Origin: Eledone cirrhosa
Taxonomy: Eukaryota
NCBI GenBank assembly: GCA_964016885.1
Contig: OZ024743.1
Location: forward strand, 82,832,001-82,896,000
Length of the DNA: 64,000 nt
Reading direction: 5' to 3'
Shown here: positions 1 through 62,272 of the stretch, in pieces
How the letters are laid out: each line of letters opens with the position of its first letter
Position numbering within the stretch: position 1 is the stretch's first letter
Position numbers and translations under genes: made by a program
The notes under the pieces: model-generated
Database searches by the model: none
What the model was told of the DNA's origin: nothing
Seen by the model: the letters and a program-made list of their open reading frames with translations, nothing else

Positions 1-3000
1 CAGCTTCTCCTGCACATTTGGTGGAACATAAGACCATACAAGGCATGACAGCTTCTCCTGCACATTTGGTGGAACATAAGACCATACAAGGCATGACAGC
101 CTCTCCTGCACATTTGGTGGAACATAAGACCATACAAGGCATGACAGCTTCTCCTGCCCATTTGGTGGAACATAAGACCATACAAGGCATGACAGCCTCT
201 CCTGCACATTTGGTGGAACATAAGACCATACAAGGCATGGCAGCTTCTCCTGCACATTTGGTGGAACATAAGACCATACAAGGCATGGCAGCTTCTCCTG
301 CACATTTGGTGGAACATAAGACCATACAACGCATGACAGCCTCTCCTGCACATTTGGTGGAACATAAGACCATACAAAGCATGGCAGCTTCTCCTGCACA
401 TTTGGTGGAACATAAGACCATACAAGGCATGACAGCCTCTCCTGCACATTTGGTTGAACATAAGACCATACAAGGCATGACAGCCTCTCCTGCACATTTG
501 GTGGAACATAAGACCATACAAAGCATGGCAGCTTCTCCTGCACATTTGGTGGAACATAAGACCATACAAGGCATGACAGCCTCTCCTGCACATTTGGTGG
601 AACATAAGACCATACAAGGCATGACAGCTTCTCCTGCACATTTGGTGGAACATAAGACCATCAAGGCATGACAGCCTCTCCTGCACATTTGGTGGAACAT
701 AAGACCATACAAAGCATGGCAGCTTCTCCTGCACATTTGGTGGAACATAAGACCATACAAGGCATGACAGCCTCTCCTGCACATTTGGTGGAACATAAGA
801 CCATACAAGGCATGACAGCTTCTCCTGCACATTTGGTGGAACATAAGACTATACAAGGCATGACAGCTTCTCCTGCACATTTGGTGGAACATAAGACTAT
901 ACAAGACATGACAGCTTCTCCTGCACATTTGGTGGAACATAAGACCATACAAGGCATGACAGCCTCTCCTGCACATTTGGTGGAACATAAGACTATACAA
1001 GGCATGACAGCTTCTCCTGCACATTTGGTGGAACATAAGACCATACAAGACATGACAGCCTCTCCTGCACATTTGGTGCAACATAAGACCATACAAGGCA
1101 TGACAGCCTCTCCTGCACATTTGGTTGAACATAAGACTATACAAGGCATGACAGCCTCTCCTGCACATTTGGTGGAACATAAGACCATACAAAGCATGGC
1201 AGCCTCTCCTGCACATTTGGTGGAACATAAGACCATACAAGGCATGACAGCCTCTCCTGCACATTTGGTTGAACATAAGACTATACAAGGCATGACAGCC
1301 TCTCCTGCACATTTGGTGGAACATAAGACCATACAAAGCATGGCAGCCTCTCCTGCACATTTGGTGGAACATAAGACCATACAAGGCATGACAGCCTCTC
1401 CTGCTCATTTGGTTGAACATAAGACTATACAAGGCATGACAGCTTCTCCTGCACATTTGGTGGAACATAAGACCATACAAGGCATGACAGCCTCTCCTGC
1501 ACATTTGGTGGAACATAAGACCATACAAGGCATGACAGCTTCTCCTGCCCATTTGGTGGAACATAAGACCATACAAGGCATGACAGCCTCTCCTGCACAT
1601 TTGGTGGAACATAAGACCATACAAGGCATGGCAGCTTCTCCTGCACATTTGGTGGAACATAAGACCATACAAGGCATGGCAGCTTCTCCTGCACATTTGG
1701 TGGAACATAAGACCATACAACGCATGACAGCCTCTCCTGCACATTTGGTGGAACATAAGACCATACAAAGCATGGCAGCTTCTCCTGCACATTTGGTGGA
1801 ACATAAGACCATACAAGGCATGACAGCCTCTCCTGCACATTTGGTTGAACATAAGACCATACAAGGCATGACAGCCTCTCCTGCACATTTGGTGGAACAT
1901 AAGACCATACAAAGCATGGCAGCTTCTCCTGCACATTTGGTGGAACATAAGACCATACAAGGCATGACAGCCTCTCCTGCACATTTGGTGGAACATAAGA
2001 CCATACAAGGCATGACAGCTTCTCCTGCACATTTGGTGGAACATAAGACCATCAAGGCATGACAGCCTCTCCTGCACATTTGGTGGAACATAAGACCATA
2101 CAAAGCATGGCAGCTTCTCCTGCACATTTGGTGGAACATAAGACCATACAAGGCATGACAGCCTCTCCTGCACATTTGGTGGAACATAAGACCATACAAG
2201 GCATGACAGCTTCTCCTGCACATTTGGTGGAACATAAGACTATACAAGGCATGACAGCTTCTCCTGCACATTTGGTGGAACATAAGACCATACAAGGCAT
2301 GACAGCCTCTCCTGCACATTTGGTGGAACATAAGACTATACAAGGCATGACAGCTTCTCCTGCACATTTGGTGGAACATAAGACCATACAAGACATGACA
2401 GCCTCTCCTGCACATTTGGTGCAACATAAGACCATACAAGGCATGACAGCCTCTCCTGCACATTTGGTTGAACATAAGACTATACAAGGCATGACAGCCT
2501 CTCCTGCACATTTGGTGGAACATAAGACCATACAAAGCATGGCAGCCTCTCCTGCACATTTGGTGGAACATAAGACCATACAAGGCATGACAGCCTCTCC
2601 TGCACATTTGGTTGAACATAAGACTATACAAGGCATGACAGCCTCTCCTGCACATTTGGTGGAACATAAGACCATACAAAGCATGGCAGCCTCTCCTGCA
2701 CATTTGGTGGAACATAAGACCATACAAGGCATGACAGCCTCTCCTGCTCATTTGGTTGAACATAAGACTATACAAGGCATGACAGCTTCTCCTGCACATT
2801 TGGTGGAACATAAGACCATACAAGGCATGACAGCTTCTCCTGCACATTTGGTGGAACATAAGACCATACAAGGCATGACAGCTTCTCCTGCACATTTGGT
2901 GGAACATAAGACCATACAAGGCATGACAGCCTCTCCTGCACATTTGGTGGAACATAAGACCATACAAAGCATGGCAGCTTCTCCTGCACATTTGGTGGAA

Positions 3001-6000
3001 CATAAGACCATACAAGGCATGACAGCCTCTCCTGCACATTTGGTGGAACATAAGACCATACAAGGCATGACAGCTTCTCCTGCACATTTGGTGGAACATA
3101 AGACCATACAAGACATGACAGCTTCTCCTGCACATTTGGTGGAACATAAGACCATACAAGGCATGACAGCTTCTCCTGCACATTTGGTGGAACATAAGAC
3201 CATACAAGACATGACAGCTTCTCCTGCACATTTGGTGGAACATAAGACCATACAAGGCATGACAGCCTCTCCTGCACATTTGGTGGAACATAAGACCATA
3301 CAAGACATGACAGCTTCTCCTGCACATTTGGTGGAACATAAGACCATACAAGACATGACAGCTTCTCCTGCACATTTGGTGGAACATAAGACCATACAAG
3401 ACATGACAGCTTCTCCTGCACATTTGGTGGAACATAAGACCATACAAGACATGACAGCTTCTCCTGCACATTTGGTGGAACATAAGACCATACAAGGCAT
3501 GACAGCCTCTCCTGCACATTTGGTGGAACATAAGACCATACAAGACATGACAGCTTCTCCTGCACATTTGGTGGAACATAAGACCATACAAGACATGACA
3601 GCTTCTCCTGCACATTTGGTGGAACATAAGACCATACAAGACATGACAGCTTCTCCTGCACATTTGGTGGAACATAAGACCATACAAGACATGACAGCTT
3701 CTCCTGCACATTTGGTGGAACATAAGACCATACAAGGCATGACAGCCTCTCCTGCACATTTGGTGGAACATAAGACCATACAAGGCATGACAGCTTCTCC
3801 TGCACATTTGGTGGAACATAAGACCATACAAGACATGACAGCTTCTCCTGCACATTTGGTGGAACATAAGACCATACAAGACATGACAGCTTCTCCTGCA
3901 CATTTGGTGGAACATAAGACCATACAAAGCATGGCAGCTTCTCCTGCACATTTGGTGGAACATAAGACCATACAAGGCATGACAGCCTCTCCTGCACATT
4001 TGGTGGAACATAAGACCATACAAGGCATGACAGCTTCTCCTGCACATTTGGTGGAACATAAGACCATACAAGGCATGACAGCCTCTCTTGCACATTTGGT
4101 GGGACATAAGACCATACAAGGCATGACAGCTTCTCCTGCACATTTGGTGGAACATAAGACCATACAAAGCATGGCAGCTTCTCCTGCACATTTGGTGGAA
4201 CATAAGACCATACAAGGCATGACAGCCTCTCCTGCACATTTGGTGGAACATAAGACCATACAAAGCATGACAGCTTCTCCTGCACATTTGGTGGAACATA
4301 AGACCATATAAGGCATGACAGCCTCTCTTGCACATTTGGTGGGACATAAGACCATACAAGGCATGACAGCTTCTCCTGCACATTTGGTGGAACATAAGAC
4401 CATACAAAGCATGGCAGCTTCTCCTGCACATTTGGTGGAACATAAGACCATACAAGGCATGACAGCCTCTCCTGCACATTTGGTGGAACATAAGACCATA
4501 CAAAGCATGACAGCTTCTCCTGCACATTTGGTGGAACATAAGACCATACAAAGCATGACAGCCTCTCCTGCACATTTGGTGGAACATAAGACCATACAAA
4601 GCATGACAGCCTCTCCTGCACATTTGGTGGAACATAAGACCATACAAAGCATGGCAGCTTCTCCTGCACATTTGGTGGAACATAAGAGCATACAAAGCAT
4701 GACAGCCTCTCCTGCACATTTGGTGGAACATAAGACCATACAAAGCATGGCAGCTTCTCCTGCACATTTGGTGGAACATAAGACCATACAAAGCATGACA
4801 GCCTCTGCTGCACATTTGGTGGAACATAAGACCATACAAAGCATGACAGCCTCTCCTGCACATTTGGTGGAACATAAGACCATACAAGGCATGACAGCCT
4901 CTCCTGCACATTTGGTTGAACATAAGACCATACAAAGCATGGCAGCCTCTCCTGCACATTTGGTGGAACATAAGACCATACAAGGCATGACAGCCTCTCC
5001 TGCACATTTGGTTGAACATAAGACCATACAAAGCATGGCAGCTTCTCTTGCACATTTGGTGGAACATAAGACCATACAAGGCATGACAGCCTCTCCTGCA
5101 CATTTGGTGGAACATAAGACCATACAAGGCATGACAGCTTCTCCTGCACATTTGGTGGAACATAAGACCATCAAGGCATGACAGCTTCTCCTGCACATTT
5201 GGTGGAACATAAGACCATACAAGGCATGACAGCTTCTCTTGCACATTTGGTGGAACATAAGACCATACAAGACATGACAGCTTCTCCTGCACATTTGGTG
5301 GAACATAAGACCATACAAGACATGACAGCTTCTCCTGCACATTTGGTGGAACATAAGACCATACAAAGCATGACAGCCTCTCCTGCACATTTGGTGGAAC
5401 ATAAGACTATACAAGGCATGACAGCCTCTCCTGCACATTTGGTGGAACATAAGACCATACAAGGCATGGCAGCTTCTCCTGCACATTTGGTGGAACATAA
5501 GACCATACAAGGCATGACAGCCTCTCCTGCACATTTGGTGGAACATAAGACTATACAAGGCATGGCAGCTTCTCCTGCACATTTGGTGGAACATAAGACC
5601 ATACAAGACATGACAGCCTCTCCTGCACATTTGGTGGAACATAAGACCATACAAGGCATGACAGCCTCTCCTGCACATTTGGTGGAACATAAGACTATAC
5701 AAGGCATGACAGCTTCTCCTGCACATTTGGTGGAACATAAGACCATACAAGGCATGACAGCCTCTCCTGCACATTTGGTGGAACATAAGACCATACAAGG
5801 CATGACAGCTTCTCCTGCACATTTGGTGGAACATAAGACCATACAAGGCATGACAGCCTCTCCTGCACATTTGGTGGAACATAAGACCATACAAGGCATG
5901 ACAGCTTCTCCTGCACATTTGGTGGAACATAAGACCATACAAGGCATGGCAGCTTCTCTTGCACATTTGGTGGAACATAAGACCATACAAGGCATGACAG

Positions 6001-6606
6001 CTTCTCCTGCACATTTGGTGGAACATAAGACCATACAAGGCATGGCAGCCTCTCCTGCACATTTGGTGGAACATAAGACCATCAAGGCATGACAGCTTCT
6101 CCTGCACATTTGGTGGAACATAAGACCATCAAGGCATGACAGCTTCTCCTGCACATTTGGTGGAACATAAGACCATACAAGGCATGACAGCTTCTCTTGC
6201 ACATTTGGTGGAACATAAGACCATACAAGGCATGGCAGCTTCTCCTGCACATTTGGTGGAACATAAGACCATACAAGGCATGGCAGCTTCTCTTGCACAT
6301 TTGGTGGAACATAAGACCATACAAGGCATGGCAGCTTCTCTTGCACATTTGGTGGAACATAAGACCATACAAGGCATGACAGCTTCTGCTGCACATTTGG
6401 TGGAACATAAGACCATACAAGGCATGACAGCTTCTCCTGCACATTTTGTGGAACATAAGACTATACAAGGCATGACAGCTTCTCCTGCACATTTGGTGGA
6501 ACATAAGACCATCAAGGCATGACAGCCTCTCCTGCACATTTGGTCGAACATAAGACCATCAAGGCATGACAGCTTCTCCTGCAAATTTGGTGGAACATAA
6601 GACCAT
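1..6606. repeat. 48-bp tandem satellite/minisatellite, ~137 copies in window, open at the left edge; probably intronic
   Basis: Unit CAGCTTCTCCTGCACATTTGGTGGAACATAAGACCATACAAGGCATGA with few variants. Occasional 47-bp units (ACCATCAAGG at ~661, 2052, 5171, 6082) shift the frame of the spurious MTASPAHLVEHKTIQG ORFs. Confidence 0.98.
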
Positions 6607-9829: not shown

Positions 9830-12800
9830 GTAGCCTCTGATAAATCTAGGCGTGAAAGTTGAATTGCTTTCCGAACACGCCCTGGTCATCCACCTGATGT
9901 CCACCCAAAGCGGCGTGCTGCAGCTTCCTTAAACCGCAGCTCGGCAAAACATGAAATCTTCAGCCTACGTGATGATGAGCAGATATGGAAGTTTGTTAAG
10001 GCTAGTGAATCATGGAAAAGAGATACCAGCTGGTCTGAAAAATCTCTGGGAAACTAAATCAGAACAACCTGCCATCCCCTGCACATAATCATAGACTGGA
10101 ATCAAGGTACAAATTGTTGTCCTTGAATGCACGTAGTCTATGCAATAAGATTCATCTTTTTGACTCCTACGTCAAAAGTATCAAGCCTGACTTCATTACA
10201 GTTACGGAAACTTGTGCACATTCTTTACTCTGTGATGGGGTTTTCAGCATAACTGGGTACAACTTGTTTCATAAAGACTGCATTAATCATTGTGTTGGTG
10301 GTGTAATGGTCTACGTTCGGTCAAATTTGTCGGCAATTCCTTGTGTTGATTTGAACCAATCACAGCAGGAAGTATTTTTCTGCTATACACCTATGAGCAT
10401 GTCAACACTGCTACTTGGAGTCGTTAACTGTCCCCCAAATTACCATCAGAACACTCAACTTTGTGATATCCTCAGAGTTGCTGCCAGGAAAACAGCCACT
10501 TATGTTTTCATTGCAGGAGACTTCAATCACCCTGAGATTGACTGGGAAACCTTTCGTTGGCCGCCAAGTGCAAATGACTTCCTTGAGCTAGTGCTGGACT
10601 CGAATTGATCCCAAGTAGTCACCTCCCCAACAAGAGGTGACAACACTTTGGACCTACTCTTCACCACTACTGCTGAAACAGTTATTAGTGTTACTGCTGA
10701 GGAACCTTTAGGTGACTGATCATGCTATGATCATTGCCAATCTATCCCTCATGGGCAGTAACAAGAACCACAACCATCTCCAAACTGCTCACTTTGACTG
10801 GAATAAAGCAGACTGGAACTGTTACTGCACTGAGTTGCAACGTCCAAACTGGCTTGAGTTCTATGACTCTGGAGATGTCAACACTGTACTCCAGAACATC
10901 CTGACAATATGGACAGCATGTGCAGCATCAGTGCCACGTAAGCAGAAAAAACATCCCAAAAGTGAAATTTGGGAGACTGCAGCAGTCCGTCTTGCCAGAA
11001 AAGAACGTTGTAATGCTGAACGTGAGTACAAACTGCATAAATCAGATATCAATAGGAAGAGGCGAAATAAATCATCCAACCATCTCAAACAGGTGACAAA
11101 AAAGGCAGTGCTTCAATTTGAGCAGTGCATAGCAAACAGCCCTAACAGTAAGGTGTTCTGGAAGTATGTTCACTCAAAGCAGAGGCCTCACTCTCCAGTT
11201 GGTCCTCTTCACAGTCCCCACACAAGCCAGGTTACTGACGACCTCAAGGAATGCGCAGAGCTCATTGCTGAATGCTATGCAGGCATTTTCACTATTGAAG
11301 ACCAGAGTGTACCGTCTCCACCACCTATGGCACTGGATTCTATTACAACCATGGTATTTACACCTGCGATGCTGCGATGTCACCTTAAAAATAAACACAA
11401 CCATGCCTCTCCTGGTCTTGATGGTGTTACCTACCTGCTACTCAAACGTGGTGGGTACTTCCTTCTGCACCAGCTATCACGCTTCTTCCAATTCTGTCTG
11501 AACAACGGTGCTACTCCAGAACAGTGGAAAACTTGCCAGTGTCATTCTTCTGTTCAAAAAGGGTGACTGCACATCACCTGTGAACTATCGTCCAGTCAGT
11601 CTTACTAACTGCATTGCCAAACTGATGGAATCCTGTGTCAGAGAAACACTTTGGAACTTCTGGAACTCTCACAGTTTTATCCGGCCCTTACAATTTGGAT
11701 TTATCCCTAACTCCAGCTCTTAGGGATAAATCCAGCTTATCGAGTTTCTTGAAGACATCACCCGGATCACTGATGGCGGCTCATGGGTGGATGTTGTTTA
11801 CCTTGACTTTGCTAAAGCTTTCAATTCTGTGCCACACAAAAGGCTTATGGCAAAACCCTCTGCAATGGGTGTGAAGGATGATCTTTTTAACTGGTTGAAG
11901 TCCTTCATTCTCAGTCGAAGAGAGGTAGTCACGGTTCTGGGACAGCATTCCTCACCATATGAGATGTCATCTGGTGTACCACAGGGATCTGTTCTTGGCC
12001 CCATTTTGTTTGTGGCATATATTAATGACATAGATGCCAACTTAAAGAATGCCATAGTACTGAAATATGCAGATGATATCAAGCTGTACCTTGAGATAAA
12101 AAGGACAGATCCTGAACACTATAGATCTTGCTTGCAGTCTGACCTGGACATAATGCAACAATGGATCACAGACTGGCAACTCAAGCTGTCTGTGGACAAG
12201 TGCACCACCATGCATTTTGGGAGTAAAAACCCAGCGTCCACATACTCCCTCTACCACACTAATATCAAGAAGTCTTCTTGTGAACGTGACCTGGGCATTA
12301 CGGTCAGCAGCGATTTGCGTTGGATAAAGCACATCTCTAAAATTGTCAAGAAGGCCAAGGGTGTCTTAGCATCACTCAGCAAGATCTTTGTCAGCCGCTC
12401 TCCAGCTATCTATTTAAAGCTGTATATGGCTATGGTGCAGCCACACTTAGAATTTGCATCACCAGTCTGGAACCCCTATCTTGCTCAGAATATTGACCTC
12501 CTAGAAACTGTTCAGAGACGTGCAACCAAGCGAATACCCTCTATCAGACATCTACCATACTCTGAACGCCTTTCTTCCCTGGGCTTAGATACATTGAAGC
12601 TCCGACGCCTGGCAACTGACTTGGTAAACACCCACAAAATTATTAACCCTTTTGCCAACAACAACCCTGAGTACCTTTTTTGATTTCCATCTGTCTAACA
12701 CACGTGGGCATGCCCACAAAGTCAGAAAACAGCATAGCTCCCATGACTTTCGGAAACATTTTTTCACGCTCAGAGTTGCTGAAGCTACTGAAACTACCTG

Positions 12801-17126: not shown

Positions 17127-18836
17127 CTTATGACCAAAACCCTATTTTGCTGATGGGGAAACGACGACGCAAGACAATAACTGAAGATGTGGACAGTCGG
17201 AAAACTTCCTCTTCTGACACGCTTACAAGTGGTGGCTCTTCAGACAGTAAACGTGCATCAAAGTCAAAATCTACTTCATCCAATGCCAAATCTACATCGT
17301 CCAATGCCAAATCCAATTCCTCATCATCTTCTTCAAAATCCCAGATTCGGAAGCAACAAAAACAACAAAAACAACAACACAAACAGCAGAAACAACAACA
17401 ACAATTACAGACTCAACTTCATTCTCCCCCTCCTGCTTCAACTCCTGCCACCACTACCACCACCACCTCTACATCATCTGCCTCTGGTCCCAATGCTACA
17501 ACCCCACCAGGACCAACACAACCTGTTGCAGTCCCTCAGGTGTTCAAATTTGATACCCTTGTGAAAAGCCAACACAAATCCAATGTGGATATGAAAGCTC
17601 GAGGATTCAAAGTACTTTCGACAGGAACATCTCAATCTTCATCGTCTTCCTCGTCATCATCATCATTGTCCCCAACCACATCATTATCATCATCTTCATT
17701 ATCATCGTCATTACCACTAAAGTCCTCATCAGCAATGGGGTCATCCAGTTCATCTGGTTTAATGAGCCAGACTGTCATTTCAAACTCAAACACCACCACC
17801 ACTACCACCACCACCACCTCTGCCGTGTGTCACCAATCTGCCATCACTAGTGTGGCAGCAAATTCTTCTACGTCCACATCATCATCATCTATATCATCGT
17901 CGTCATTCAAGGATGCATTTCACACACAATTCCCGAATGCCACCACGAAGCCCAATTCTAGAGATATTGCTCTACAGCAGAAAGAGAAAGGTCGTAAGGA
18001 ACTGTTGCCAGCACACTCTGTTCATCATCGGTTACACTCACACAAGAGTTCACAACAAAAAGACAAAATGAAAAAAGAGAAAAAACTGTCAGCATCATCA
18101 AAAGCCAACCGTTCTGGTCATCCTATGCCATTGTCTCCTTCAAGTAGTGGTGAGAAATTCTTCTTCAATCATAAATGCAAAAAAGTACCAAAAAATGCTA
18201 ACACTTCATTTTCTATCCTCCGAGCCGCTTCATTTGATTATAAAATTAATGAGGGTGCCACACCCCTCAGCCATTCTCCCCCTCTTGATGATACTGCTTC
18301 TTCTTCTCTTGTCAGTCCTGCAAATATTTCTTCTTCTTCCTCCTCATCCTCTGCTTATTCAAAGTCTTCATCTTCTCCCTCCTCCTCCCCCATTTTGACA
18401 TCTACTACCACCTCATCTACTTCTACTACAACCGTCTCCTCCTCCTCTTGTTTATCATCCTCTCCTGCTCCCACCACACTTCCCCCTCCACCTCCTGTCT
18501 CTTCCAAATTTTCTACTCTCTTTCCTTCTACAACTTCTGTAACATCATCTTCTTCTTCTTCTTCTTTGAGTACCATTTGCGCAAAAAATACTTCTACCGT
18601 TTCTTTGGCCAATGACCGTAAATTGGCCAGCATCAAAACTGACAGTCCGCTCTGTCCTTCTTCATCACAACCAGACCGTGGCACTGACAGGTTCTGCTCG
18701 GTGCTAAAGCGAAAAGTTACTGAGAAAAACCTTGCTAAGGTTCAAAAGCCAGTCTCAAAGAGTTTCAAATCTAACCGCTGCAAGAAGAAAGGATCTGATC
18801 GAAGCATTTCGTCCGAAAACAAAAGTAAAATTGCAG
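17127..18836 (+). CDS. TNRC18/BAHCC1: TNRC18/BAHCC1 family 1.7-kb exon: Ser/Thr/Gln-rich disordered linker with basic NLS-like clusters
   Basis: ccttAG acceptor in phase 1, 570-aa open frame, donor G|GTACAT. Ends ENKSKIA, which joins the next exon to give the conserved [16 protein letters not shown] pre-BAH motif. Confidence 0.9.
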
Positions 18837-19084: not shown

Positions 19085-19534
19085 CAAGTGGAAGCTTAGT
19101 AAAATCGAAGCTTTGGCTGCGCCCAAGCAAAGTCGACCTACAATTAGGAATGAGTAGCAAAGCACTCCCTTAGAGTAATAATTTTACGTTTAGATAGCTT
19201 GACAAATTGAAAATTGCGGCAGGCAAAACCCGGCAAAACCCAACCATACATTACCAAAAGAACGAAAAAACTAATCAGGTAAAACAACAGACCTGGACAT
19301 GTTGAATGATATTCTGCAATACGTCCGATATGTTTCTATGAATCCAAAATCATCAATCCAACTTAAGTAATAAGTAAGCTTGTGGTATTCCATCATCGAA
19401 CAGGGGATTCTCTTCATCGACAGGTATTTCGTTCTAGACCTCAAACCGGTGTGAACTGTAACTCAATGCGACCACCACAATAGACAGCCTTGAATCATTT
19501 TGTTGTCACGTGTTATTTCCACAAATACATATAC

Positions 19535-19583
<49 letters not shown>

Positions 19584-19685
19584 TGTATATATAGTGTATT
19601 TTGCAATACACTGTATGCTTAATTAAAAGCATTTCGAAGACCATACGCTATTGTTTTAGAGTAGTGACAGTCTCACTTTAGATTT

Positions 19686-19778
19686 TTTTCAGCAAACAGG
19701 GGAGATAAAGCTGACAGAGCTCTGTTTCGTACTTTTTGGTACTTATCAAAGCCAACTACTCCACCTGTTTGCTGAAAA
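19686..19778 (-). ncRNA. Type I hammerhead ribozyme, U3-A8 core variant, copy 1
   Basis: Minus strand reads GCT-TTGATAA-GTAC-CAAAAA-GTAC-GAAA-CAGAGCTCTG-TC^AGC. Stem I extends through GGAG/CTCC and CAGCAAACAGG/CCTGTTTGCTG. Predicted GUC cleavage after 19713. Confidence 0.8.
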
Positions 19779-20005
19779 TCATGAATGTTTGTTTCTTATA
19801 GAATTCTAGTAATAATCAGGAACTGATTATACAGAGCGGTTGCCGGTCAAGCAGAAATTGAAAATTAGAATTGGTGCTCTGAAATAGCGATATATATATG
19901 AATGTATATATAGTGTATTTTGCAATACACTGTATGCTTAATTAAAAGCATTTCGAAGAGCTTACGCTATTGTTTTAGAGTAGTGACAGTCTCACTTACT
20001 TTAAA

Positions 20006-20099
20006 TTTTCAGCAAACAAGGGGAGATAAAGCTGACAGAGCTCTGTTTCGTACTTTTTGGTACTTATCAAAGCTATCTACTCCACCTGTTTGCTGAAAA
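20006..20099 (-). ncRNA. Type I hammerhead ribozyme, U3-A8 core variant, copy 2
   Basis: Core, stem II and stem III identical to copy 1; differences confined to stem I. Predicted cleavage after 20034. Confidence 0.8.
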
Positions 20100-20381
20100 G
20101 CATACAGTGTATTGCAAAATACACTATATATACATTCATATATATATATCGCTATTTCAGAGCACCAATTCTAATATATATATAAATATAGTGGTAAAAC
20201 ACCTGGAGGTTACATCCGTAGTAAGTGGAGCACTCTGCCCATAGGACAAGTTCTGTAGAAGGTTAATTCCACAACAAATTAGCAAACATACCTGAGTACA
20301 TGCGTTTCATCCAATACAGTTGAAAATCTGTTGGGTGAAACACACACACTCAGGTATGTTTGCTAATTTGTTGTGGACCTA

Positions 20382-20437
<56 letters not shown>

Positions 20438-20532
20438 AGAAAGTATGACCCCGACGGCAGAGCTCAAGCCGTTTTGACGGCTATTTCTGGACTAAAATAT
20501 ATATATATACACACACACACATATATACATGT

Positions 20533-27916: not shown

Positions 27917-30900
27917 CCAGTTTTAGTTGTCTGACTGTGGCCATGCTGGGGCACTGCCTTCATTTAGTCAATCATATCAACCCTAGTACCCTTTTCCCAG
28001 TTTTAGTTGTCTGACTGTGGCCATGCTGGGGCACTGCCTTCATTTAGTCAATCATATCAACCCTAGTACCCTTTCCCCAGTTTTAGTTGTCTGACTGTGG
28101 CCATGCTGGGGCACTGCCTTCATTTAGTCAATCATATCAACCCTAGTACCCTTTTCCCAGTTTTAGTTGTCTGACTGTGGCCATGCTGGGGCACTGCCTT
28201 CATTTAGTCAATCATATCAACCCTGGTACCTTTTTGCCCAGTTTTAGTTGTCTGACTGTGGCCATGCTGGGGCACTGCCTTCATTTAGTCAATCATATCA
28301 ACCCTAGTATATTTTTCCCAGTTTTAGTTGTCTTGACTGTGGCCATGCTGGGGCACTGCCTTCATTTCGTCAATCATATCAACCCTAGTACCCTTTTCCC
28401 AGTTTTAGTTGTCTGACTGTGGCCATGCTGGGGCACTGCCTTTATTTAGTCAATCATATCAACCCTAGTACCCTTTCCCCAGTTTTAGTTGTCTGACTGT
28501 GGCCATGCTGGGGCACTGCCTTCATTTAGTCAATCATATCAACCTTAGTACATTTTCCCCAGTTTTAGTTGTCTGACTGTGGCCATGTTGGGGCACTGCC
28601 TTTATTTAGTCAATCATATCAACCCTAGTACCCTTTCCCCAGTTTTAGTTGTCTGACTGTGGCCATGCTGGGGCACTGCCTTCATTTAGTCAATCATATC
28701 AACCCTAGTACCCTTTTCCCAGTTTTAGTTGTCTGACTGTGGCCATGCTGGGGCACTGCCTTCATTTAGTCAATCATATCAACCTTAGTACATTTTCCCC
28801 AGTTTTAGTTGTCTGACTGTGGCCATGCTGGGGCACTGCCTTCATTTAGTCAATCATATCAACCTTAGTACATTTTCCCCAGTTTTAGTTGTCTGACTGT
28901 GGCCATGCTGGGGCACTGCCTTTATTTAGTCAATCATATCAACCCTAGTACCCTTTTCCCAGTTTTAGTTGTCTGACTGTGGCCATGCTGGGGCACTGCC
29001 TTTATTTAGTCAATCATATCAACCCTAGTACCCTTTCCCCAGTTTTAGTTGTCTGACTGTGGCCATGCTGGGGCACTGCCTTCATTTCGTCAATCATATC
29101 AACCCTAGTACCCTTTTCCCAGTTTTAGTTGTCTGACTGTGGCCATGCTGGGGCACTGCCTTTATTTAGTCAATCATATCAACCCTAGTACCCTTTCCCC
29201 AGTTTTAGTTGTCTGACTGTGGCCATGCTGGGGCACTGCCTTTATTTAGTCAATCATATCAACCCTAGTACCCTTTTCCCAGTTTTAGTTGTCTGACTGT
29301 GGCGATGCTGGGGCACTGCCTTCATTTCGTCAATCATATCAACCCTAGTACCCTTTTCCCAGTTTTAGTTGTCTGACTGTGGCCATGCTGGGGCACTGCC
29401 TTCATTTAGTCAATCATATCAACCCTAGTACCCTTTTCCCAGTTTTAGTTGTCTGACTGTGGCCATGCTGGGGCACTGCCTTCATTTCGTCAATCATATC
29501 AACCCTAGTACCCTTTTCCCAGTTTTAGTTGTCTGACTGTGGCCATGCTGGGGCACTGCCTTCATTTCGTCAATCATATCAACCCTAGTACCCTTTTCCC
29601 AGTTTTAGTTGTCTGACTGTGGCCATGCTGGGGCACTGCCTTTATTTAGTCAATCATATCAACCCTAGTACCCTTTCCCCAGTTTTAGTTTTCTGACTGT
29701 GGCCATGCTGGGGCACTGCCTTTATTTAGTCAATCATATCAACCCTAGTACCCTTTTCCCAGTTTTAGTTGTCTGACTGTGGCCATGCTGGGGCACTGCC
29801 TTCATTTCGTCAATCATATCAACCCTAGTACCCTTTTCCCAGTTTTAGTTGTCTGACTGTGGCCATGCTGGGGCACTGCCTTTATTTAGTCAATCATATC
29901 AACCCTAGTACCCTTTCCCCAGTTTTAGTTGTCTGACTGTGGCCATGCTGGGGCACTGCCTTTATTTAGTCAATCATATCAACCCTAGTACCCTTTTCCC
30001 AGTTTTAGTTGTCTGACTGTGGCCATGCTGGGGCACTGCCTTTATTTAGTCAATCATATCAACCCTAGTACCCTTTCCCCAGTTTTAGTTGTCTGACTGT
30101 GGCCATGCTGGGGCACTGCCTTTATTTAGTCAATCATATCAACCCTAGTACCCTTTCCCCAGTTTTAGTTGTCTGACTGTGGCCATGCTGGGGCACTGCC
30201 TTCATTTAGTCAATCATATCAACCTTAGTACATTTTCCCCAGTTTTAGTTGTCTGACTGTGGCCATGCTGGGGCACTGCCTTTATTTAGTCAATCATATC
30301 AACCCTAGTACCCTTTCCCCAGTTTTAGTTGTCTGACTGTGGCCATGCTGGGGCACTGCCTTCATTTAGTCAATCATATCAACCTTAGTACATTTTCCCC
30401 AGTTTTAGTTGTCTGACTGTGGCCATGCTGGGGCACTGCCTTCATTTAGTCAATCATATCAACCTTAGTACATTTTCCCCAGTTTTAGTTGTCTGACTGT
30501 GGCCATGCTGGGGCACTGCCTTCATTTAGTCAATCATATCAACCTTAGTACATTTTCCCCAGTTTTAGTTGTCTGACTGTGGCCATGCTGGGGCACTGCC
30601 TTCATTTAGTCAATCATATCAACCTTAGTACATTTTCCCCAGTTTTAGTTGTCTGACTGTGGCCATGCTGGGGCACTGCCTTCATTTAGTCAATCATATC
30701 AACCTTAGTACATTTTCCCCAGTTTTAGTTGTCTGACTGTGGCCATGCTGGGGCACTGCCTTTATTTAGTCAATCATATCAACCCTAGTACCTTTTCCCC
30801 AGTTTTAGTTGTCTGACTGTGGCCATGCTGGGGCACTGCCTTCATTTCGTCAATCATATCAACCCTAGTACCCTTTTCCCAGTTTTAGTTGTCTGACTGT

Positions 30901-32440
30901 GGCTATGCTGGGGCACTGCCTTCATTTAGTCAATCATATCAACCTTAGTACATTTTCCCCAGTTTTAGTTGTCTGACTGTGGCCATGCTGGGGCACTGCC
31001 TTCATTTAGTCAATCATATCAACCTTAGTACATTTTCCCCAGTTTTAGTTGTCTGACTGTGGCCATGCTGGGGCACTGCCTTCATTTAGTCAATCATATC
31101 AACCCTAGTACCTTTTTGCCCAGTTTTAGTTGTCTGACTGTGGCCATGCTGGGGCACTGCCTTCATTTAGTCAATCATATCAACCCTAGTACCCTTTTCC
31201 CAGTTTTAGTTGTCTGACTGTGGCCATGCTGGGGGCACTGCCTCCATTTAGTCAATCATATCAACCCTAGTACATTTTTCCCAGTTTTAGTTGTCTGACT
31301 GTGGCCATGCTGGAACACTGCCTTCATTTAGTCAATCATATCAACCTTAGTACATTTTCCCCAGTTTTAGTTGTCTGACTGTGGCCATGCTGGGGCACTG
31401 CCTTCATTTAGTCAATCATATCAACCCTAGTACCTTTTTCCCAGTTTTAGTTGTCTGACTGTGGCCATGCTGGGGCACTGCCTTCATTTAGTCAATCATA
31501 TCAACCCTAGTACCTTTTTCCCCAGTTTTAGTTGTCTGACTGTGGCCATGCTGGGGCACTGCCTTCATTTCGTCAATCATATCAACCCTAGTACCTTTGT
31601 CCCCAGTTTTAGTTGTCTGACTGTGGCCATGCTGGGGCACTGCCTTCATTTAGTCAATCATATCAACCCTAGTACCCTTTTCCCAGTTTTAGTTGTCTGA
31701 CTGTGGCCATGCTGGGGGCACTGCCTCCATTTAGTCAATCATATCAACCCTAGTACCCTTTTCCCAGTTTTAGTTGTCTGACTGTGGCCATGCTGGGGCA
31801 CTGCCTTCATTTAGTCAATCATATCAACCCTAGTACCTTTTTCCCCAGTTTTAGTTGTCTGACTGTGGCCATGCTGGGGCACTGCCTTCATTTCGTCAAT
31901 CATATCAACCCTAGTACCCTTTTCCCAGTTTTAGTTGTCTGACTGTGGCCATGCTAGGGCACTGCCTTCATTTAGTCAATCATATCAACCCTAGTACCCT
32001 TTTCCCAGTTTTAGTTGTCTGACTGTGGCCATGCTAGGGCACTGCCTTCATTTAGTCAATCATATCAACCCTGGTACCCTTTTCCCAGTTTTAGTTGTCT
32101 GACTGTGGCCATGCTAGGGCACTGCCTTCATTTAGTCAATCATATCAACCCTAGTACCCTTTTCCCAGTTTTAGTTGTCTGACTGTGGCCATGCTGGGGC
32201 ACTGCCTTCATTTAGTCAATCATATCAACCCTAGTACCCTTTTCCCAGTTTTAGTTGTCTGACTGTGGCCATGCTAGCACTGCCTTCGTTTAGTCAATCT
32301 TATCAACCCTAGTACATTTTTCCCAGTTTTCGTTGTCTGACTGTGGCCATGCTGGGGCACTGCCTTCATTTAGTCAATCATATCAATCCTAGTATATTTT
32401 TCCCAGTTTTTGTTGTCTGACTGTGGCCATGCTGGGGCAC
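27917..32440. repeat. 60-bp tandem satellite, ~75 copies, highly homogeneous
   Basis: Unit CCAGTTTTAGTTGTCTGACTGTGGCCATGCTGGGGCACTGCCTTCATTTAGTCAATCATATCAACCCTAGTACCCTTTTC-type; columns stay in register over successive 60-nt lines. Confidence 0.97.
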
Positions 32441-40576: not shown

Positions 40577-41860
40577 TGTCTGTCATTAACACTTTCATTA
40601 CCATATTTCTAATGAAAGACACTCTCTGTCATTAACCCTTTCATTACCATATTTCTATTGAAAGACAATCTCTGTCATTAACCCTTTCATTACCATATTT
40701 CTAATGAAAGACACTGTCTATGTCATTAACCCTTCATTACCATATTGCTAATGAAAGACACTGTCTATGTCTTTAACCCTTTCATTACCATATATCTAAT
40801 GAAAGACACTGTCTATGTCTTTAACCCTTTCATTACCATATTTCTAATGAAAGACACTGTCTATGTCTTTAACGCTTTCATTTTCACATTTCTAATGAAA
40901 GTCACTGTCTATGTCATTAACCCTTTCATTACCATATTTCTAATGAAAGACACTGTCTGTCATTAACCCTTTCCTTACCATATTTCTAATGAAAGACACT
41001 ACCTACATTTTTAACCCTTTCATTACCATATTTCTAATGAAAGACACTGTCTATGTCATTAACCCTTTCATTACCATATTTCTAATGAAAGACAATCTCT
41101 GTCATTAACCCTTTCATTACCATATTTCTAATGAAAGACACTGTCTGTCATTAACCCTTTCATTACCATATTTCTAATGAAAGACACTCTCTGTCATTAA
41201 CCCTTTCATTACCATATTTCTAATGAAAGACACTGTCTATGTCATTAACCCTTCATTACCATATTTCTAATGAAAGACACTGTCTATGTCTTTAACCCTT
41301 TCATTACCATATTTCTAATGAAAGACACTGTCTATGTCTTTAACCCTTTCATTTTCACATTTCTAATGAAAGACACTGTCTATGTCTTTAACCCTTTCAT
41401 TACCATATTTCTAATGAAAGACACTGTCTATGTCATTAACTCTTTCATTACCATATTTCTAATGAAAGACACTGTCTATGTCTTTAACCCTTTCATTACC
41501 ATATTTCTAATGAAAGACACTGTCTATGTCTTTAACTCTTTCATTTTCACATTTCTAATGAAAGACACTGTCTATGTCTGTAACCCTTTCATTACCATAT
41601 TTCTAATGAAAGACACTGTCTATGTCTTTAACCCTTTCATTACCATATTTCTAATGGAAGACACTGTCTATGTCATTAACCCTTTCATTACCATATTTCT
41701 AATGAAAGACACTGTCTATGTCATTAACCCTTTCATTACCATATTTCTAATGAAAGACACTATCTATGTCATTAACCCTTTCATTACCATATTTCTAATG
41801 AAAGACACTGTCTATGTCTTTAACCTTTTCACTACCATACTTCTAATGAGAGACACTGCT
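40577..41860. repeat. 48/44-bp minisatellite (~27 copies) built from the end of a TTAA MITE
   Basis: Unit TTAACCCTTTCATTACCATATTTCTAATGAAAGACACTGTCTATGTCA. The last unit continues into the MITE body (41820-42070); the same terminus occurs singly, reversed, at ~50945-50975. Confidence 0.92.
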
Positions 41861-42167: not shown

Positions 42168-43692
42168 CCCTTTAGCATTCGCATTAATTTTCAAATGTCA
42201 CGCTTATCTGTTCGCATTTATTTTGAGTTAATCATACTCAAGAGGGTTATCAATTTCATTTGTTTGTAATTTTCTTAATTTTCTATGTGCAGACTTGAAA
42301 TTTTGTCAGTAGATGTTAAAATATCAATAATTTACAATTGTATATTTTTACCAATTTCTTTTGTTAAATTTGACTTTTATGGGCAAGTGAAATTAATTAA
42401 CAGGTGTAAAAGTAATGACTTTATGGATAAACACAAAAATTAAAACTTTATCTGACTTACCTGCTAGATTTGTTACAAAGAATATCCAACAATGACCTAG
42501 ATGTTGACTTCCAACAATTTTAGCACATTTCTGAACAGGTGAATTAATTTAAAATGCAGGTATAATCAGTACAGTACACGGTTTTAGTCTGTCTCTACAT
42601 TTCATGCAAATATTTTCATTGAAAAAAATGTATAAAACCCTTTCACCAGTCAAAATAATATTGGCAATGTACTCTTACACAATGTACTGAGTAGATTTAT
42701 ATAACAGAATGTACCCAATATATAAGTTCATTAACAGGTGTGATGCAGATGAATGCAGGTGTTTTTTGTATATAATGTGTTCCAATATATTTTTTTCAAT
42801 ATTGTCAGACAATATTTCTATCATGATATTGGCCAAAACAGCCTTTACATAATGTCACTTTGCAAAATGAACACATAAACGTGATTTGAATTCCACAACC
42901 TTTAACAGTTTTTCTCTTTCGCAAAGAGCACATTCAGCAAACCTTCCTCCTCCCATTCATTTTCTCCACTTTGTGAAAATCAATATTTTCCGTGTTTACC
43001 TCAGATAATTTCGACTTTCTCCCAGCTTTGTGTTTACGAGAAGAATATCCTCCATGTAGCTGAGAGGCAGAGTCTACACAAAATTTCCTGTGGCAGTAGT
43101 CCTTTGGTGGTGGCGGATCCTTGTGGCTTTTAGTGAATACAATAAAAGAATTAACAATGGCTAAATTCACTAAAAACCACAAGATATACCTCCATTTCTT
43201 CCAGGAGCATCCAACTGGGTAGTAGGTGCAATATTGGTCAGATTTATCAACCCCACCCATATATTTATTATAGGAGAGGTTGACTAAAGGTTTACCTTCA
43301 ATCCCAACTCCTGGTTCTTGGTTAGACGATAGGAACAAAATTTGTCGCTTGTCTTTATACAATGTGGCTAACAAGTTCCCTTTTTGCAATTGGAGAATGT
43401 CCCCTCTCTTTTTAAATTTTGTGATTTTCATTTCTTGGGGTAGCGCTTTGCGATTCCCCATTATTGTACCGCAGGTGTACGTATTTACGAGGGCAAGATC
43501 CTCTGCTAGACGCACTGAAGAAAAAAAACAATCAAAATATATGTGTCTGTTTTGAGAGTGAAAGGGTTCAGTCAGAGACCACACAACATCGTACCCCAAG
43601 CCATATTTTCTCTCTCCGTTGTGTTTCTTTCCTGTGTAAACATCAAAGTTTACACAGTAGCCTGTGTCCGATTCACAGAGTTCCCACACCTT
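42168..43692 (-). mobile_element. piggyBac transposon 3' half; PGBD4-like transposase pseudogene at 42805-43692
   Basis: KVWELCESDTGY..FDVYTGK, YFDCFFSS, GTIMGNRK, YNKYMGGVDKSDQ. Past an in-frame TGA the Cys-rich tail reads C*MCSLRKRK..TFMCSFCKVTLCKGCFGQYH. Terminus TTAA|CCCTTTAGCATT at 42164-42179. Confidence 0.9.
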
Positions 43693-46105
43693 GAGTGCGT
43701 GCACGACGGTTTCATCGCTCTGCGTGCATCTCGGATAGGCTCAGCTGACAGCACTTCCGTGCCTGTAGAGCTTATCTCGAACCGGCAACGCTCCCTGGTA
43801 GCACTGCCAAGCCAGGGATTTCTGGAAGAGAGCAAACAGCTGATTTTCTTTGACGCCCAGGATCTCTCTGAGAACGTCGTCGCTCTTCTCCTCCACTAGT
43901 CCTCTATAGAACGCCAAGGTGGATGTTCCAACGATACTGATGCCCAGCTGGCAGAGGGCGGTGAGCGCCTGGAGACATTCCAGTTTCCAAGCTCTATCTC
44001 TCGGTCTTTTCCTGACCCAGGACTACAGCTCCATCAAGGAGACGAGCTGTGGGAAAACATACCTGGCGAACGGCGACCACACCTGTTCACTGTCAAGGAA
44101 GCACCAGTTATGTCGCAGCCTCAGCGCATGTTTGCGCATCATCAGCCATGGCATGCCCAGTCCTCCACGCAACGGGTGTTGACAGCAGATGGATCGTCTG
44201 ACCATGGGAGCGTGTCCTTTCCACAAAAAGTGGAAGAGGAGGCGCTCCATTTTGGTGAGAGTTGGGCCGGGGCAAGGGACGATGGTGAGGGGGTAGCAGA
44301 TGACGGATGCGATGTACGCATTTGCCACCTCAGCCCGGCCTTTCAGAGACAGCTTCCTCGGCCCATTTCTGGGTGAGGGAGGCCACCCTGCTCATCACCT
44401 CGCTCCAGTTTTTCTCCATCTGGAGGTCCGGTCCGAACCAGACCCCGAACAATTTAACTGGTCCGTCCGTCCAACGCCCCACGACGCTGTCGGACGGCAT
44501 GGACTTGCCTCTCCAGGTGCCGAGCTGTAAGCCCACCGACTTTTCCAGGTTTATTTTTGCTCCTGTCACCGCTTCGTATTCCTTGAGAGCGGTGCTGAGC
44601 ATCTGGACATGTCTGGTGCTCGACACCACCATGGTGACGTCGTCGGCACAAGCCGACTCGGATTTCCCGCATCCTAGTTCGCGTAGGATGTCCCTCATCG
44701 CCCCCAGTTTTTGCAGTAACGACTCGAGAGCCAATATGTACAAGACGGAAGAGAAGGGACAACCCTGATGGTCCAAGCGCATGATGCTGAACGACTGCGA
44801 CAGGTGACTGTTCACCCTCATAACCAAGCAGATGTCGCTGTACATCACAGCGATCCAACCCCTGAAAACGGGCCCGAAACCGGCTGCCTCGAGGACCGCC
44901 GTCAGGTACCGATGGTCGACCTATTGAATGCTTTGGATTGATCCAAGTTGATCAGGGCCCCACCCATGGCAGGTTCCTCAACCAACTCTCTACGATGTAT
45001 CGCACGAGGTGGAGGTTGTTGTGTATGGATCTGTCCGGAATGGCGCATGTCTGCGATCTCCCACCAGATCCTCGATGACAAGCCCCAACCTCGTTGCTAA
45101 CACCATGGCCAAAATCTTGAACTCTGCGTTTAGCAGCGTTACAGGCCTGAAGTTATCAATAACATCCCCCTTGTTCGGCTTTTTTCTCAGCAGCGCCACC
45201 GCTCCCCGGCTCACAAAACTGGGAATGCTCCCGTTCTGCTGCCAGTTGCAGTAGCCGTCTACCAAGAGGTCACCGAACAAGTCTGGCATAAATGCATGAA
45301 GCTCGTAGGGCAGACCATCCAAACCTGGCGACTTACCCCTCGTGCAGTTTGCCATCGCTTCCCGTATTTCACCGGCTGTTATTGGTTTTTTGCAACACAG
45401 TGCTGCAGTCGTTGAGAGCCGAGGCAGTCCATCGAGGTATGCACTGAAGTCTATACCCCGATCCGGGCCGCCGCTGCTCCCGAACAGTTCAGCAAAGTGC
45501 TGCTGAAAAGCCTCACACATCTGCTTGGGTTCGAGCAACACGCACCCGTTTTGGTCAGACAAAGACCGAATTGTGGTTTTGTTGCCATGTCGCACCTCTG
45601 CCACCCGGGCCCATTGGACGGCTTTCGTCCCCTCGTGTTTCAGAGCATGCGCTCTAGCTCTGACAATGCAGCCTTCGTGTTTTGCGTTGAAGAATTGGTC
45701 GAGTGCCAATCTCGCCGCAAGCACATCGGTTGCGATGCCTGTCCTAAACGCCTCTTCTAGCTTTCTGACTAGCTCTCCCTCTACTCTATTTTCCTCTATC
45801 ACCAGTCCTTTGCTAAACCTAATCGACTCTACTTTAATTGCCCTTTTCAGGGCGAACCACCACCTGTTGTTGACGACCGCTCCTGTCAACGCCAGCTTAA
45901 CTAATACGCTAATCCGGTCTCTGTAGGCTTTGCGCGCCGGGAAAGATGCGTTCAGCTTCCAGTAACCGGGTCCTTGTCTATGAAGTCTGTCTATGTCGAT
46001 CTCACAGATCACAAATTTGTGGTCTGTGTAGTCAACTATTTTAAATTGTGGACAACTTATACCAGCCTTATCTAGTTCTCTGCAGAATACCCTATCTAGA
46101 TACGG
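43693..46105 (-). mobile_element. L1/Tx1-clade LINE ORF2 remnant (end of APE, RT, start of zinc knuckle), GC-rich, frameshifted
   Basis: LDRVF..YTDHKFV, GPGYWKLNAS, GKSPGLDGLPYE, NFRPVTLLNAEFKILA, QGCPFS, ACADD, YPRCTQSDETVVHAL. Confidence 0.9.
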
Positions 46106-46136
46106 GTCTAGATAACAACAATAATAATGCTTTAAT

Positions 46137-46492
46137 AAAGACCTGGAAATAGAGATTGGAAAAATGTAGAAGTTGAGAACTAAAACAATAGCAGTGGTTG
46201 TAGGCGCTCTAGGAATGATACCTAAGGGATCTAATGATTACTTATCCCAAATCCCAGGAAACCCGCATATAGAAGAAATACAACAGATAGTACTAATGGG
46301 AACTGGCCATATACTTAGGAAAATTCTGTCAATACCTCCTCCTTAAATCAATCAACCTACATGTGCATGCTCAGGTCAGACCCATTCACATGAGCCATTC
46401 TCACCACATTCACCCACTGGGGGGCAGCACTTCCCTCTCCACCCTCACCTTCCTTTCCAAGAGAAACTTGAAAAAGTTAATAATAATAATAA
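46137..46492 (+). mobile_element. R4/Dong-clade non-LTR retrotransposon 3' fragment (restriction-like endonuclease C-terminus)
   Basis: KDLEIEIGKM*KLRTKTIAVVVGALGMIPK...IQQIVLMGTGHILRKILS; flanked by (AAT)n, the known Dong target. Confidence 0.75.
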
Positions 46493-57323: not shown

Positions 57324-57546
57324 TATTGTTATACTTTGGGAGACACACACCTGTTGGTTTTGACTTCAATTTATTACAAATTTCCAGTTAGTTGGTTTAA
57401 TAACCAGATGATTGTTTATTTATTGTCATGCCAACAACCATCCAGTTATTAAACCAACCAACTAGAAATTTGTAATAAATTGAAGTGAAAACCAACATGT
57501 TCATGTGTTTTTATTGGCAGCCCGACCCTCCCCAAGTATAACAATA
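57324..57546. mobile_element. Fold-back/MITE-like inverted repeat
   Basis: TATTGTTATACTT.GGG ... CCCAAGTATAACAATA ends and ~65-bp imperfect inner arms. Confidence 0.6.
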
Positions 57547-57626
57547 GATACTTTACACTTCATCATAGTTCAACACAAATTTCCATCAAGACAGGTTTCT
57601 TTTGTCTACTTGGTATCATCCTAAAA

Positions 57627-61050: not shown

Positions 61051-61086
61051 GCAAGTACACATATATATATATATGTATATGTATAC

Positions 61087-61120
<34 letters not shown>

Positions 61121-61419
61121 GTATATATATATGTGTATACATATATGTGTATACATATATATATATAGTAGTAATGCGTATAATCGAAGTTGCAGCTGCA
61201 AGTAGCAGGCTAGCCTTGATCATCGAAGACTGCCATGAAGCACTCAATGATGAGTAATTAATAAATTCCTCCTCAGAGTGAACACAAGAAGTTAGGTAAT
61301 AGTGACACAATGAATAATGTGTCCAGAGACATGTTGCCACGTTATACTACAATAACTAAGATACAAACGGTTAAAGACGAACCTATATATATAAGTAGAT
61401 TAAAATAAAATATATTTTA

Positions 61420-62268: not shown

Positions 62269-62272
62269 TATA

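Follow-up and report, generated by a model that had tools for sequence, protein, structure and literature searches.

We report that a hammerhead-bearing insert in a 64,000-nt stretch of the Eledone cirrhosa genome (contig OZ024743.1 of assembly GCA_964016885.1; the whole stretch is hereafter called the window) is a copy of a non-coding repeat of about 320 nt that sits in (TA)n, has Penelope-type ends and likely spreads as a retrozyme, probably by way of RNA circles and the reverse transcriptase (RT) of a Penelope-like element (PLE). Dispersed copies, subfamilies, compensatory evolution, fixed 3' ends, (TA)n flanks, inverted arms and arrays are observed directly in the DNA. The most informative features are the inverted arm, the two-ended tail signature and the (TA)n targeting, all of which an earlier note on this DNA had missed. 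The parts of the locus and the nearest host exon (window coordinates, strand, identity) are as follows:

17127..18836, plus strand: upstream host exon of a BAHCC1/TNRC18-like gene, limits set by eye from splice signals
19525..19570, no strand: (TA)n tract, left insertion boundary and likely target
19571..19890, minus strand: complete retrozyme unit of about 320 nt, its 3' end entering the (TA)n tract (end type 1, untailed)
19593..19612, minus strand: terminal 8-bp hairpin (helix 8), one double-sided change in subfamily E
19615..19632, minus strand: 6-bp hairpin (helix 7), one double-sided change in subfamily E
19663..19677, minus strand: 5-bp hairpin directly 3' of the ribozyme (helix 6), one double-sided change in subfamily C
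19686..19778, minus strand: type I hammerhead 1 with extended stem I; U3 at 19749, A8 at 19744, predicted cleavage after C17 at 19713
19713..20033, minus strand: predicted 321-nt monomer between both predicted cleavage sites
19864..19889, minus strand: 'tail' segment where two units join; 64 of 182 copies stop at its far edge (end type 2)
19890..19899, minus strand: (TA)5 inside the unit, where 75 of 182 copies stop (end type 1)
19891..20099, minus strand: second tandem unit, 5'-truncated, 209 nt
20006..20099, minus strand: type I hammerhead 2; U3 at 20070, A8 at 20065, predicted cleavage after C17 at 20034
20100..20175, plus strand: inverted arm made of the element's 3' end and tail (20150-20175), stopping in a TA run (end type 2)

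The earlier note had described two direct units of about 320 bp, but only 19571-19890 is complete, the second unit being truncated to 209 nt and followed by an inverted 3' end with its tail. The inverted arm at 20100-20175 repeats 19864-19939, and TA runs meet both outer ends of the insert. Nor do the catalytic parts stand out as identical amid differing flanks, as had been claimed: over 108 nt of flank the two copies in the window agree at 98% of positions, and what looked like a difference is due to the inversion. Contigs of runs X1, X2 and X4 (one study, possibly of the assembly's own sample) also contain the family, with loose TA ends at 19863-19864. The terminal hairpin at 19593..19612 is a possible RT recognition element. 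An internal TATATA in 19864-19899 lies 26-39 nt upstream of Inr-like words within or after the tail; the arrangement resembles the TATA and Inr of rotifer pLTRs as described in the accessible text of PMC3846280 and may be a promoter. Immediately right of the element lie an inverted repeat of 66 bp and a piece of a different repeat family that also inserts into TA (20256-20389 and 20437-20497); this family recurs at sampled loci L171 and L174. Rfam matches of miRNA type near the locus were sub-threshold and were rejected as artefacts of TA repeats and hairpins.

On the minus strand we located both of the extended type I hammerheads that had been read from the letters, each with a UUGAUAA core, a GUAC/GUAC stem II, GAAA, the palindromic stem III CAGAGCUCUG and a GUC site. 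Both have the general hammerhead core (C/U)UGAN(G/A)A...GAAA...UH within three stems, stem I being open, and the cut sites predicted in the earlier note, after 20034 and 19713, hold as well, with the C17 positions exactly 321 nt apart. The predicted 321-nt monomer (34% GC) has a circular minimum free energy (MFE) of -79.7 kcal/mol and a z-score of -5.7 (100 shuffles). The hammerheads themselves fold with z-scores of -7.6 and -6.9, none of 200 shuffles being equally stable; since the plus strand of 20003-20100 also folds (z -5.5), folding alone does not fix the strand. An Rfam comparison, as the earlier note had proposed, did match both copies to HH9, but at 23-24 bits only (E 0.014-0.024) against a gathering cut-off of 52 bits. 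In two-dimensional models, from which tertiary contacts and dimer folding are excluded, pairing between the core and the 5' half of stem III disfavours the active fold in the window copies; this fold lies 3.0-4.5 kcal/mol above the MFE there (P below 0.01), 0.5 in two subfamily B copies and 7.9 in two subfamily E copies. Among Xenopus retrozyme dimers, cleavage was seen in 1 of 9 (10.64898/2026.07.22.740005, accessible text).

Genome-wide, an exact pattern of core plus stem II gave 1,537 matches and its reversed control 0, which shows that the motif is not a chance occurrence, and an exact 22-mer of the 3' hairpin gave 3,393 (control 0). The family thus has thousands of copies, and these pattern counts are lower bounds. 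The 3-8 pair is U-A in 1,405 of the 1,537 matches, C-G in 106 and, by subtraction, mismatched in 26, so that 1,511 retain a Watson-Crick pair. The earlier note's proposal of a retrozyme with a compensatory U3-A8 core is borne out by these counts and by the sequence-level hallmarks of retrozymes: a 321-nt unit of 34% GC with one type I hammerhead, within the 150-450-nt low-GC class; many dispersed copies; and tandem organisation from dimers to multimers. A Pfam search of the ORFs over the unit returned no match.

At least five subfamilies are seen. Subfamily A, to which the window copy belongs, has U3-A8 and a 10-nt palindromic stem III; B has C3-G8; C has U3-A8, an 8-nt palindrome and an altered stem I (46 pattern matches); E has C3-G8 and an altered stem II (413 exact core/stem II matches, control 0), the pair being C-G in 92 of the 100 matches listed out of 413, by manual count; and F, with a weak first pair of stem II, has U3-A8 in 24 of 26 copies parsed from 30 loci. 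A perfectly palindromic stem III occurs only in A and C, both U3-A8; since F is U3-A8 yet non-palindromic, palindromy does not simply track the core variant. Subfamilies also meet within single loci. About 4 kb to the right of the window (G000:C4), an E copy (L178:4195-4445) and a C copy (near L178 4850-5190) lie less than 1 kb apart in neighbouring TA tracts. A tandem at L168:835-1700 consists of a subfamily C unit followed by a subfamily A unit, which suggests template switching or insertion into the internal TA of an older copy.

Compensatory change across the family was followed in an alignment of 24 natural full units, six each from A, B, C and E (36, 18, 18 and 9 being available). The hammerhead fold and the three downstream hairpins are paired in 97.6% of 1,079 cells, and 13 of 45 pairs show double-sided change, as against 28-45% paired cells and 0-5 such pairs in slid controls; the covariation of core and stems that the earlier note wished to see among genomic copies is thus present across subfamilies. 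These double-sided changes are a handful of subfamily-level lineage events rather than independent copies, and a shuffle test for their number on the same 24 units was not significant (69 of 500). The 11 core nucleotides are invariant across A, B, C and E. Between subfamilies, 46 of 97 ribozyme columns differ, compared with 22 of 110 and 21 of 105 flank columns (about 20%), and the ribozyme is therefore the part that changes fastest between subfamilies, through compensatory pairs. The earlier note had argued for selection from conserved catalytic parts; the form of that argument was wrong given this ratio, while selection itself is now supported more strongly. With seven F units added, the tree reads (E,F) versus (B,(A,C)). 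On it the 3-8 state must change twice, and grouping all U3-A8 copies in one clade is rejected even when every ribozyme column is left out (p-AU 3e-4). The 3-8 pair has thus switched between C-G and U-A at least twice. Given that C3-G8 is universal, two gains of U3-A8 are the simplest reading, the order of change being left to a root placed by midpoint only.

In single copies, within subfamilies and within arrays, the ribozyme decays about as fast as its flanks. Selection has therefore acted on the propagating source lineages, and the intronic window copy bears no sign of being special. By a strict pattern, an intact ribozyme remains in 0 of 14, 1 of 32 and 3 of 19 units of three arrays. Divergence is 5-7% in arrays versus 2-4% in dispersed copies, a comparison confounded by the choice of dispersed copies for intact cores. 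Hypermutation of the arrays by RNA editing was considered and rejected, as the mutation spectrum is strand-symmetric and an excess of A>G is absent.

The ends of the copies carry the strongest resemblance to PLEs. We classified 182 distinct ribozyme-bearing copies (250 before duplicate removal), in samples picked for intact ribozymes or as top matches: the internal TA is the end point of 75 and the tail edge that of 64, 17 run on into a tandem unit and 26 stop elsewhere. The two fixed 3' ends are about 27-35 nt apart and lie in (TA)n. A TA-type run that is not templated by the element adjoins 63 of the 64 tailed ends; as background, 8.6% of window positions have (TA)3 within 18 nt, under a run definition slightly different from that used to score ends. 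The insertions sit in (TA)n, where a target-site duplication would be unreadable. Head-to-head inversions with two 3' ends make up 44 of 126 loci, and in 39 of these 44 one end is tailed and the other untailed, where about half would be expected (P = 6e-8). The inverted arms differ in length and their ends are unequal; 5' ends vary from copy to copy, and 3' ends are fixed. Both in the window and at these 44 loci we find the optional tail, usually on one end, and the inverted 5'-truncated copy beside a partial tandem that are characteristic of PLEs: in the accessible text of PMC3846280 and 10.1101/2021.04.23.441226, PLE insertions typically consist of a partial tandem plus an inverted truncated copy, carry a tail of 30-40 nt on one end and are biased towards microsatellites. 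According to the corresponding text of PMC11167929, reverse transcription has two start sites inside the RNA, with the tail as the stretch that separates them, and AT-rich DNA is cut and extended on both strands by the PLE protein. The rule of one tail per insertion (39 of 44) points to the use of two RT start sites on opposite target strands, and a PLE protein probably mobilises the retrozyme in trans, with one start site per strand.

Arrays and partial copies bear on the template. Among the first 30 of the 3,393 3'-hairpin matches (about 24 loci, half of the matches being classed by eye), 20 reach 5' past the cleavage site, 2 begin at it and 8 begin 3' of it. The template was thus mostly uncleaved or religated RNA rather than a linear monomer. 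The tandem arrays that the earlier note had recommended looking for exist, with 5, 14, 16, 19 and 32 full units; a count by trimer pattern (12 matches) severely underestimates them, as those loci contained long arrays. Two same-strand ribozymes occur in only 16 of 126 sampled loci, most copies being shorter than 1.5 units. The 32-unit array (G000:C2, about 11.5 kb) is bounded on one side by a short inverted arm that stops in (TA)n and on the other by a tail with (TA)n. In four long arrays, adjacent and distant units diverge alike (0.126/0.127, 0.120/0.122 for the 32-unit array, 0.112/0.113 and 0.095/0.092). At least one pair of units in each of these four shares variants far beyond chance, indicating later local duplication; shared variants exceed a uniform-rate null in two of the four, and one long array has a clear higher-order repeat. 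Because of the local duplications and the excess of shared variants in two of four, the arrays are not pure one-step products: rolling-circle synthesis followed by local duplication fits best, and early local amplification may have contributed arrays. Within loci, median divergence is 7.9% for tandem and 6.1% for inverted pairs, compared with 5-8% for random same-subfamily pairs whose subfamily labels were faulty, and does not separate the template models.

PLEs are abundant in the same genome, with candidates in the tens of thousands. One family, a young one, is Hydra-like, with open frames of 821 aa, copies about 97% identical and a 3' UTR of 1.2 kb (L065, L172-L174; 111 scored matches). The Hydra-like clade is reported to carry hammerheads; a hammerhead descriptor search of this family found none. 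A second, Neptune-like family has a minimal hammerhead near a TA-flanked end, and this end differs from that of the retrozyme. Both clade labels are our own assignment, presumed from DKT/DKS and CxxC motifs (as in the accessible text of 10.1101/2021.04.23.441226). Pfam gave no match on five PLE fragments. BLASTN of the retrozyme against 30 Hydra-like loci gave TA-level matches only, and an nhmmer profile of the retrozyme run over the sampled loci gave, among the matches listed, family copies and bare hammerhead cores only. We found no PLE ORF in eight array regions searched with two PLE queries, and no shared foreign sequence beyond 30 copies chosen by their 3' hairpin (45 nt inspected). Likewise, the PLE ORFs for which the earlier note had proposed to look were not seen: in the two PLE families and the sampled loci there was neither an RT and GIY-YIG ORF attached to the element nor a shared end repeat. 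The element has a terminal hairpin in common with the Hydra-like end, a likeness too weak to name a partner.

Several other hammerhead repeats came to light. One, unrelated to the retrozyme (L104:1850-2320; L155:1770-1960), has C3-G8, a 4-nt palindromic loop III and a long stem I, forms inverted arms in TA tracts and is probably another retrozyme or PLE end family. A minimal family with U3-A8 forms head-to-head pairs near TA runs (L044:5730-5900, also L034, L047 and L156) and is a further independent use of U3-A8 in this genome. Another minimal family is marked by a long stem II and by a 3' end that is fixed and flanked by TA (L009:1050-1300; L174:1800-2150; L043; L156), and two more minimal families end in TA tracts (L042:5590-5690; L011; L115; L192; L171, minus strand near 5100).

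In the cycle that we propose, dimer and multimer loci would be transcribed and the hammerheads would cut out 321-nt monomers, which a host ligase would circularise; RtcB is the ligase named in the accessible text of PMC7229834. By analogy with PMC11167929 (accessible text), a PLE RT/GIY-YIG protein would nick both strands of a (TA)n target and reverse transcription would start at two internal RNA sites, one per strand, leaving one tailed and one untailed end. Synthesis would pass the religated junction, with early stops giving truncated monomers and dimers like the window locus and long runs giving arrays. Inserted copies decay neutrally as a class, as the window copy presumably does. We regard a retrozyme mobilised by PLEs as highly probable when circular and linear templates are taken together, and a circular template as likely. 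Speaking against the retrozyme that spreads through circles are the absence of shared PLE sequence in the families and loci searched, the local duplications, the disfavoured two-dimensional fold, the low number of loci with two same-strand ribozymes (16 of 126), the single cleaving dimer among nine in Xenopus, the in vitro transposition of PAc without cleavage and the non-significant shuffle test. More tentatively, we suggest that the DNA records the full cycle, namely a ribozyme-made circle, a PLE RT dimer priming both strands at two internal sites, and single rolling-circle arrays of at least 10 kb.

The main competitor, unlikely in our estimate though deserving weight, retains PLE mobilisation of a non-autonomous element and dispenses with the circle: linear uncleaved multimers would be copied, the arrays would arise by local amplification soon after insertion, and the ribozyme would be kept for another step such as the trimming of read-through transcripts or a late cleavage assisted by protein. 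For PAc, transposition in vitro proceeds from unprocessed RNA and does not require the hammerhead (PMC11167929, accessible text); the 20 of 30 copies that cross the cleavage site fit uncleaved RNA equally well, and both the later local duplications in four of four arrays and the disfavoured active fold in two dimensions favour this account. However, most copies hold fewer than 1.5 units and yet full units survive in at least five subfamilies, a persistence that a circle, by regenerating units, explains simply; most array units are star-like without an excess of adjacent-unit similarity, and efficient ribozymes would be expected to destroy an 11-kb multimer template.

Two further accounts give up the independent retrozyme. 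An origin of the repeats as the end repeats (pLTRs), truncated at the 5' end, of an unsampled autonomous PLE agrees with the tail, the inverted arm and the TA targeting, which are exactly PLE insertion features (PMC3846280; 10.1101/2021.04.23.441226, accessible text), and with a genome in which only two families among tens of thousands of PLE candidates were closely examined. Upstream of the ribozyme, however, copies carry on through the common spacer into another unit, for as many as 32 units, none of the 30 3'-hairpin copies enters shared foreign sequence within the 45 nt inspected, the eight array regions match no PLE ORF with the two queries, and the PLE-linked hammerhead of this genome (Neptune-like) is of minimal type whereas that of the retrozyme is extended; we hold this origin to be very improbable. 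A satellite or MITE-like repeat that spreads as DNA and whose hammerhead is a non-functional relic, to which we give hardly any credence, would account for the local duplication in arrays and the neutral decay of copies, and inverted ends with TA flanks are superficially MITE-like, but its arms should not vary in length with unequal ends, nor its 5' ends vary while 3' ends are fixed, nor core nucleotides stay fixed while stems covary across subfamilies. We therefore keep to the PLE-mobilised retrozyme with a circular template as the likely reading.

The insert lies antisense within the intron that follows exon 17127..18836, as the earlier note had stated, the host gene being placed on the plus strand by BAHCC1-like Tudor exons (about 8.0 and 13.3 kb) and by a BAH exon further downstream (about 52.1 kb). 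One homologue of the exon near the insert was found; it comes from Octopus bimaculoides and matches 38% of the query at 69% identity. Being antisense to it, the window copy would not cut the host pre-mRNA, and the insert is most likely neutral for the host gene. The introns of this gene also contain large minisatellites at 1-6606, 27917-32440, 40581-41858 and 48548-50014 (periods 48, 80, 48 and 23/45 bp). Degenerate pieces at 10039-12700, 42937-46237, 57489-58371 and 59293-64000 are what we take, from ORF motifs, to be LINE-type RT, L1/Tx1-like, mariner-type transposase and RTE-like fragments, the mariner pieces alone having Pfam matches.

How animal retrozymes return to DNA is the question that these data address. 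PLEs and circular templates are proposed for this step in PMC7229834, to which 10.64898/2026.07.22.740005 adds PLE co-occurrence and end-repeat homology; the accessible text of neither contains insertion footprints, and here a non-coding retrozyme carries the PLE-specific tail. If the full cycle is indeed recorded, the family would be direct genomic evidence for the proposed route through PLEs and circular RNA, and its repeated switches from C3-G8 to U3-A8 would be natural tuning of a circle-forming ribozyme. The five subfamilies also amount to a natural series of mutants of a single hammerhead. Since this genome has PLEs with open frames and an in vitro PLE assay exists (PMC11167929, accessible text), both trans-mobilisation and synthesis by rolling circle can be tested directly. 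In the open literature (including the accessible part of PMC6765202; subscription papers, Repbase and Dfam lie outside this scope) we found no cephalopod retrozyme, of which the supplement to PMC7229834 may list some, and no account of PLE tails on retrozymes; the word 'hammerhead' occurs 0 times in the accessible text of an O. vulgaris repeat annotation (PMC13282606).

Compared with animal non-LTR retrozymes as described in the accessible parts of Cervera and de la Pena 2020 (PMC7229834) and Li, Clavereau and Pollet 2026 (10.64898/2026.07.22.740005), the octopod family is alike in its non-coding unit (170-400 nt there, GC under 45%), in its single extended type I hammerhead per unit, in its range from monomers to multimers, and in its thousands of copies without LTR-type features and with co-occurring PLEs. 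It differs in its octopod host (the mollusc studied there is a mussel), in the dominance of a U3-A8 core that has switched at least twice, and in its (TA)n targeting, 5' inverted arms and two-ended tail, the word 'tail' having 0 occurrences in the accessible text of 10.64898/2026.07.22.740005; expression and circles were shown for the published retrozymes, whereas this family is known from DNA alone. With endonuclease-bearing PLEs (PMC3846280; 10.1101/2021.04.23.441226; PMC11167929, likewise in their accessible parts) it shares the partial tandem with an inverted 5'-truncated copy, the optional tail of 30-40 nt, microsatellite or AT-rich targets and a hammerhead 5' of two fixed 3' ends, but it has no ORF, its hammerhead is extended rather than minimal, and neither of the two PLE families examined matches it in sequence. 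That U3-A8 is a tolerated covariation, as the earlier note had held, was already in print: the variant has been described for natural hammerheads (PMC3088659) and for some 1,300 PLE hammerheads of Schistosoma (Cercyon PLE min-HHRs, PMC4209133), which, as far as the accessible text of both sources goes, have the same compensatory core pair in minimal or scattered motifs, whereas here it occurs in an extended retrozyme hammerhead with both 3-8 states in sister subfamilies of one element. Thus, U3-A8 itself is not new, and the octopod family is a non-LTR retrozyme of known kind with a new-looking PLE footprint.
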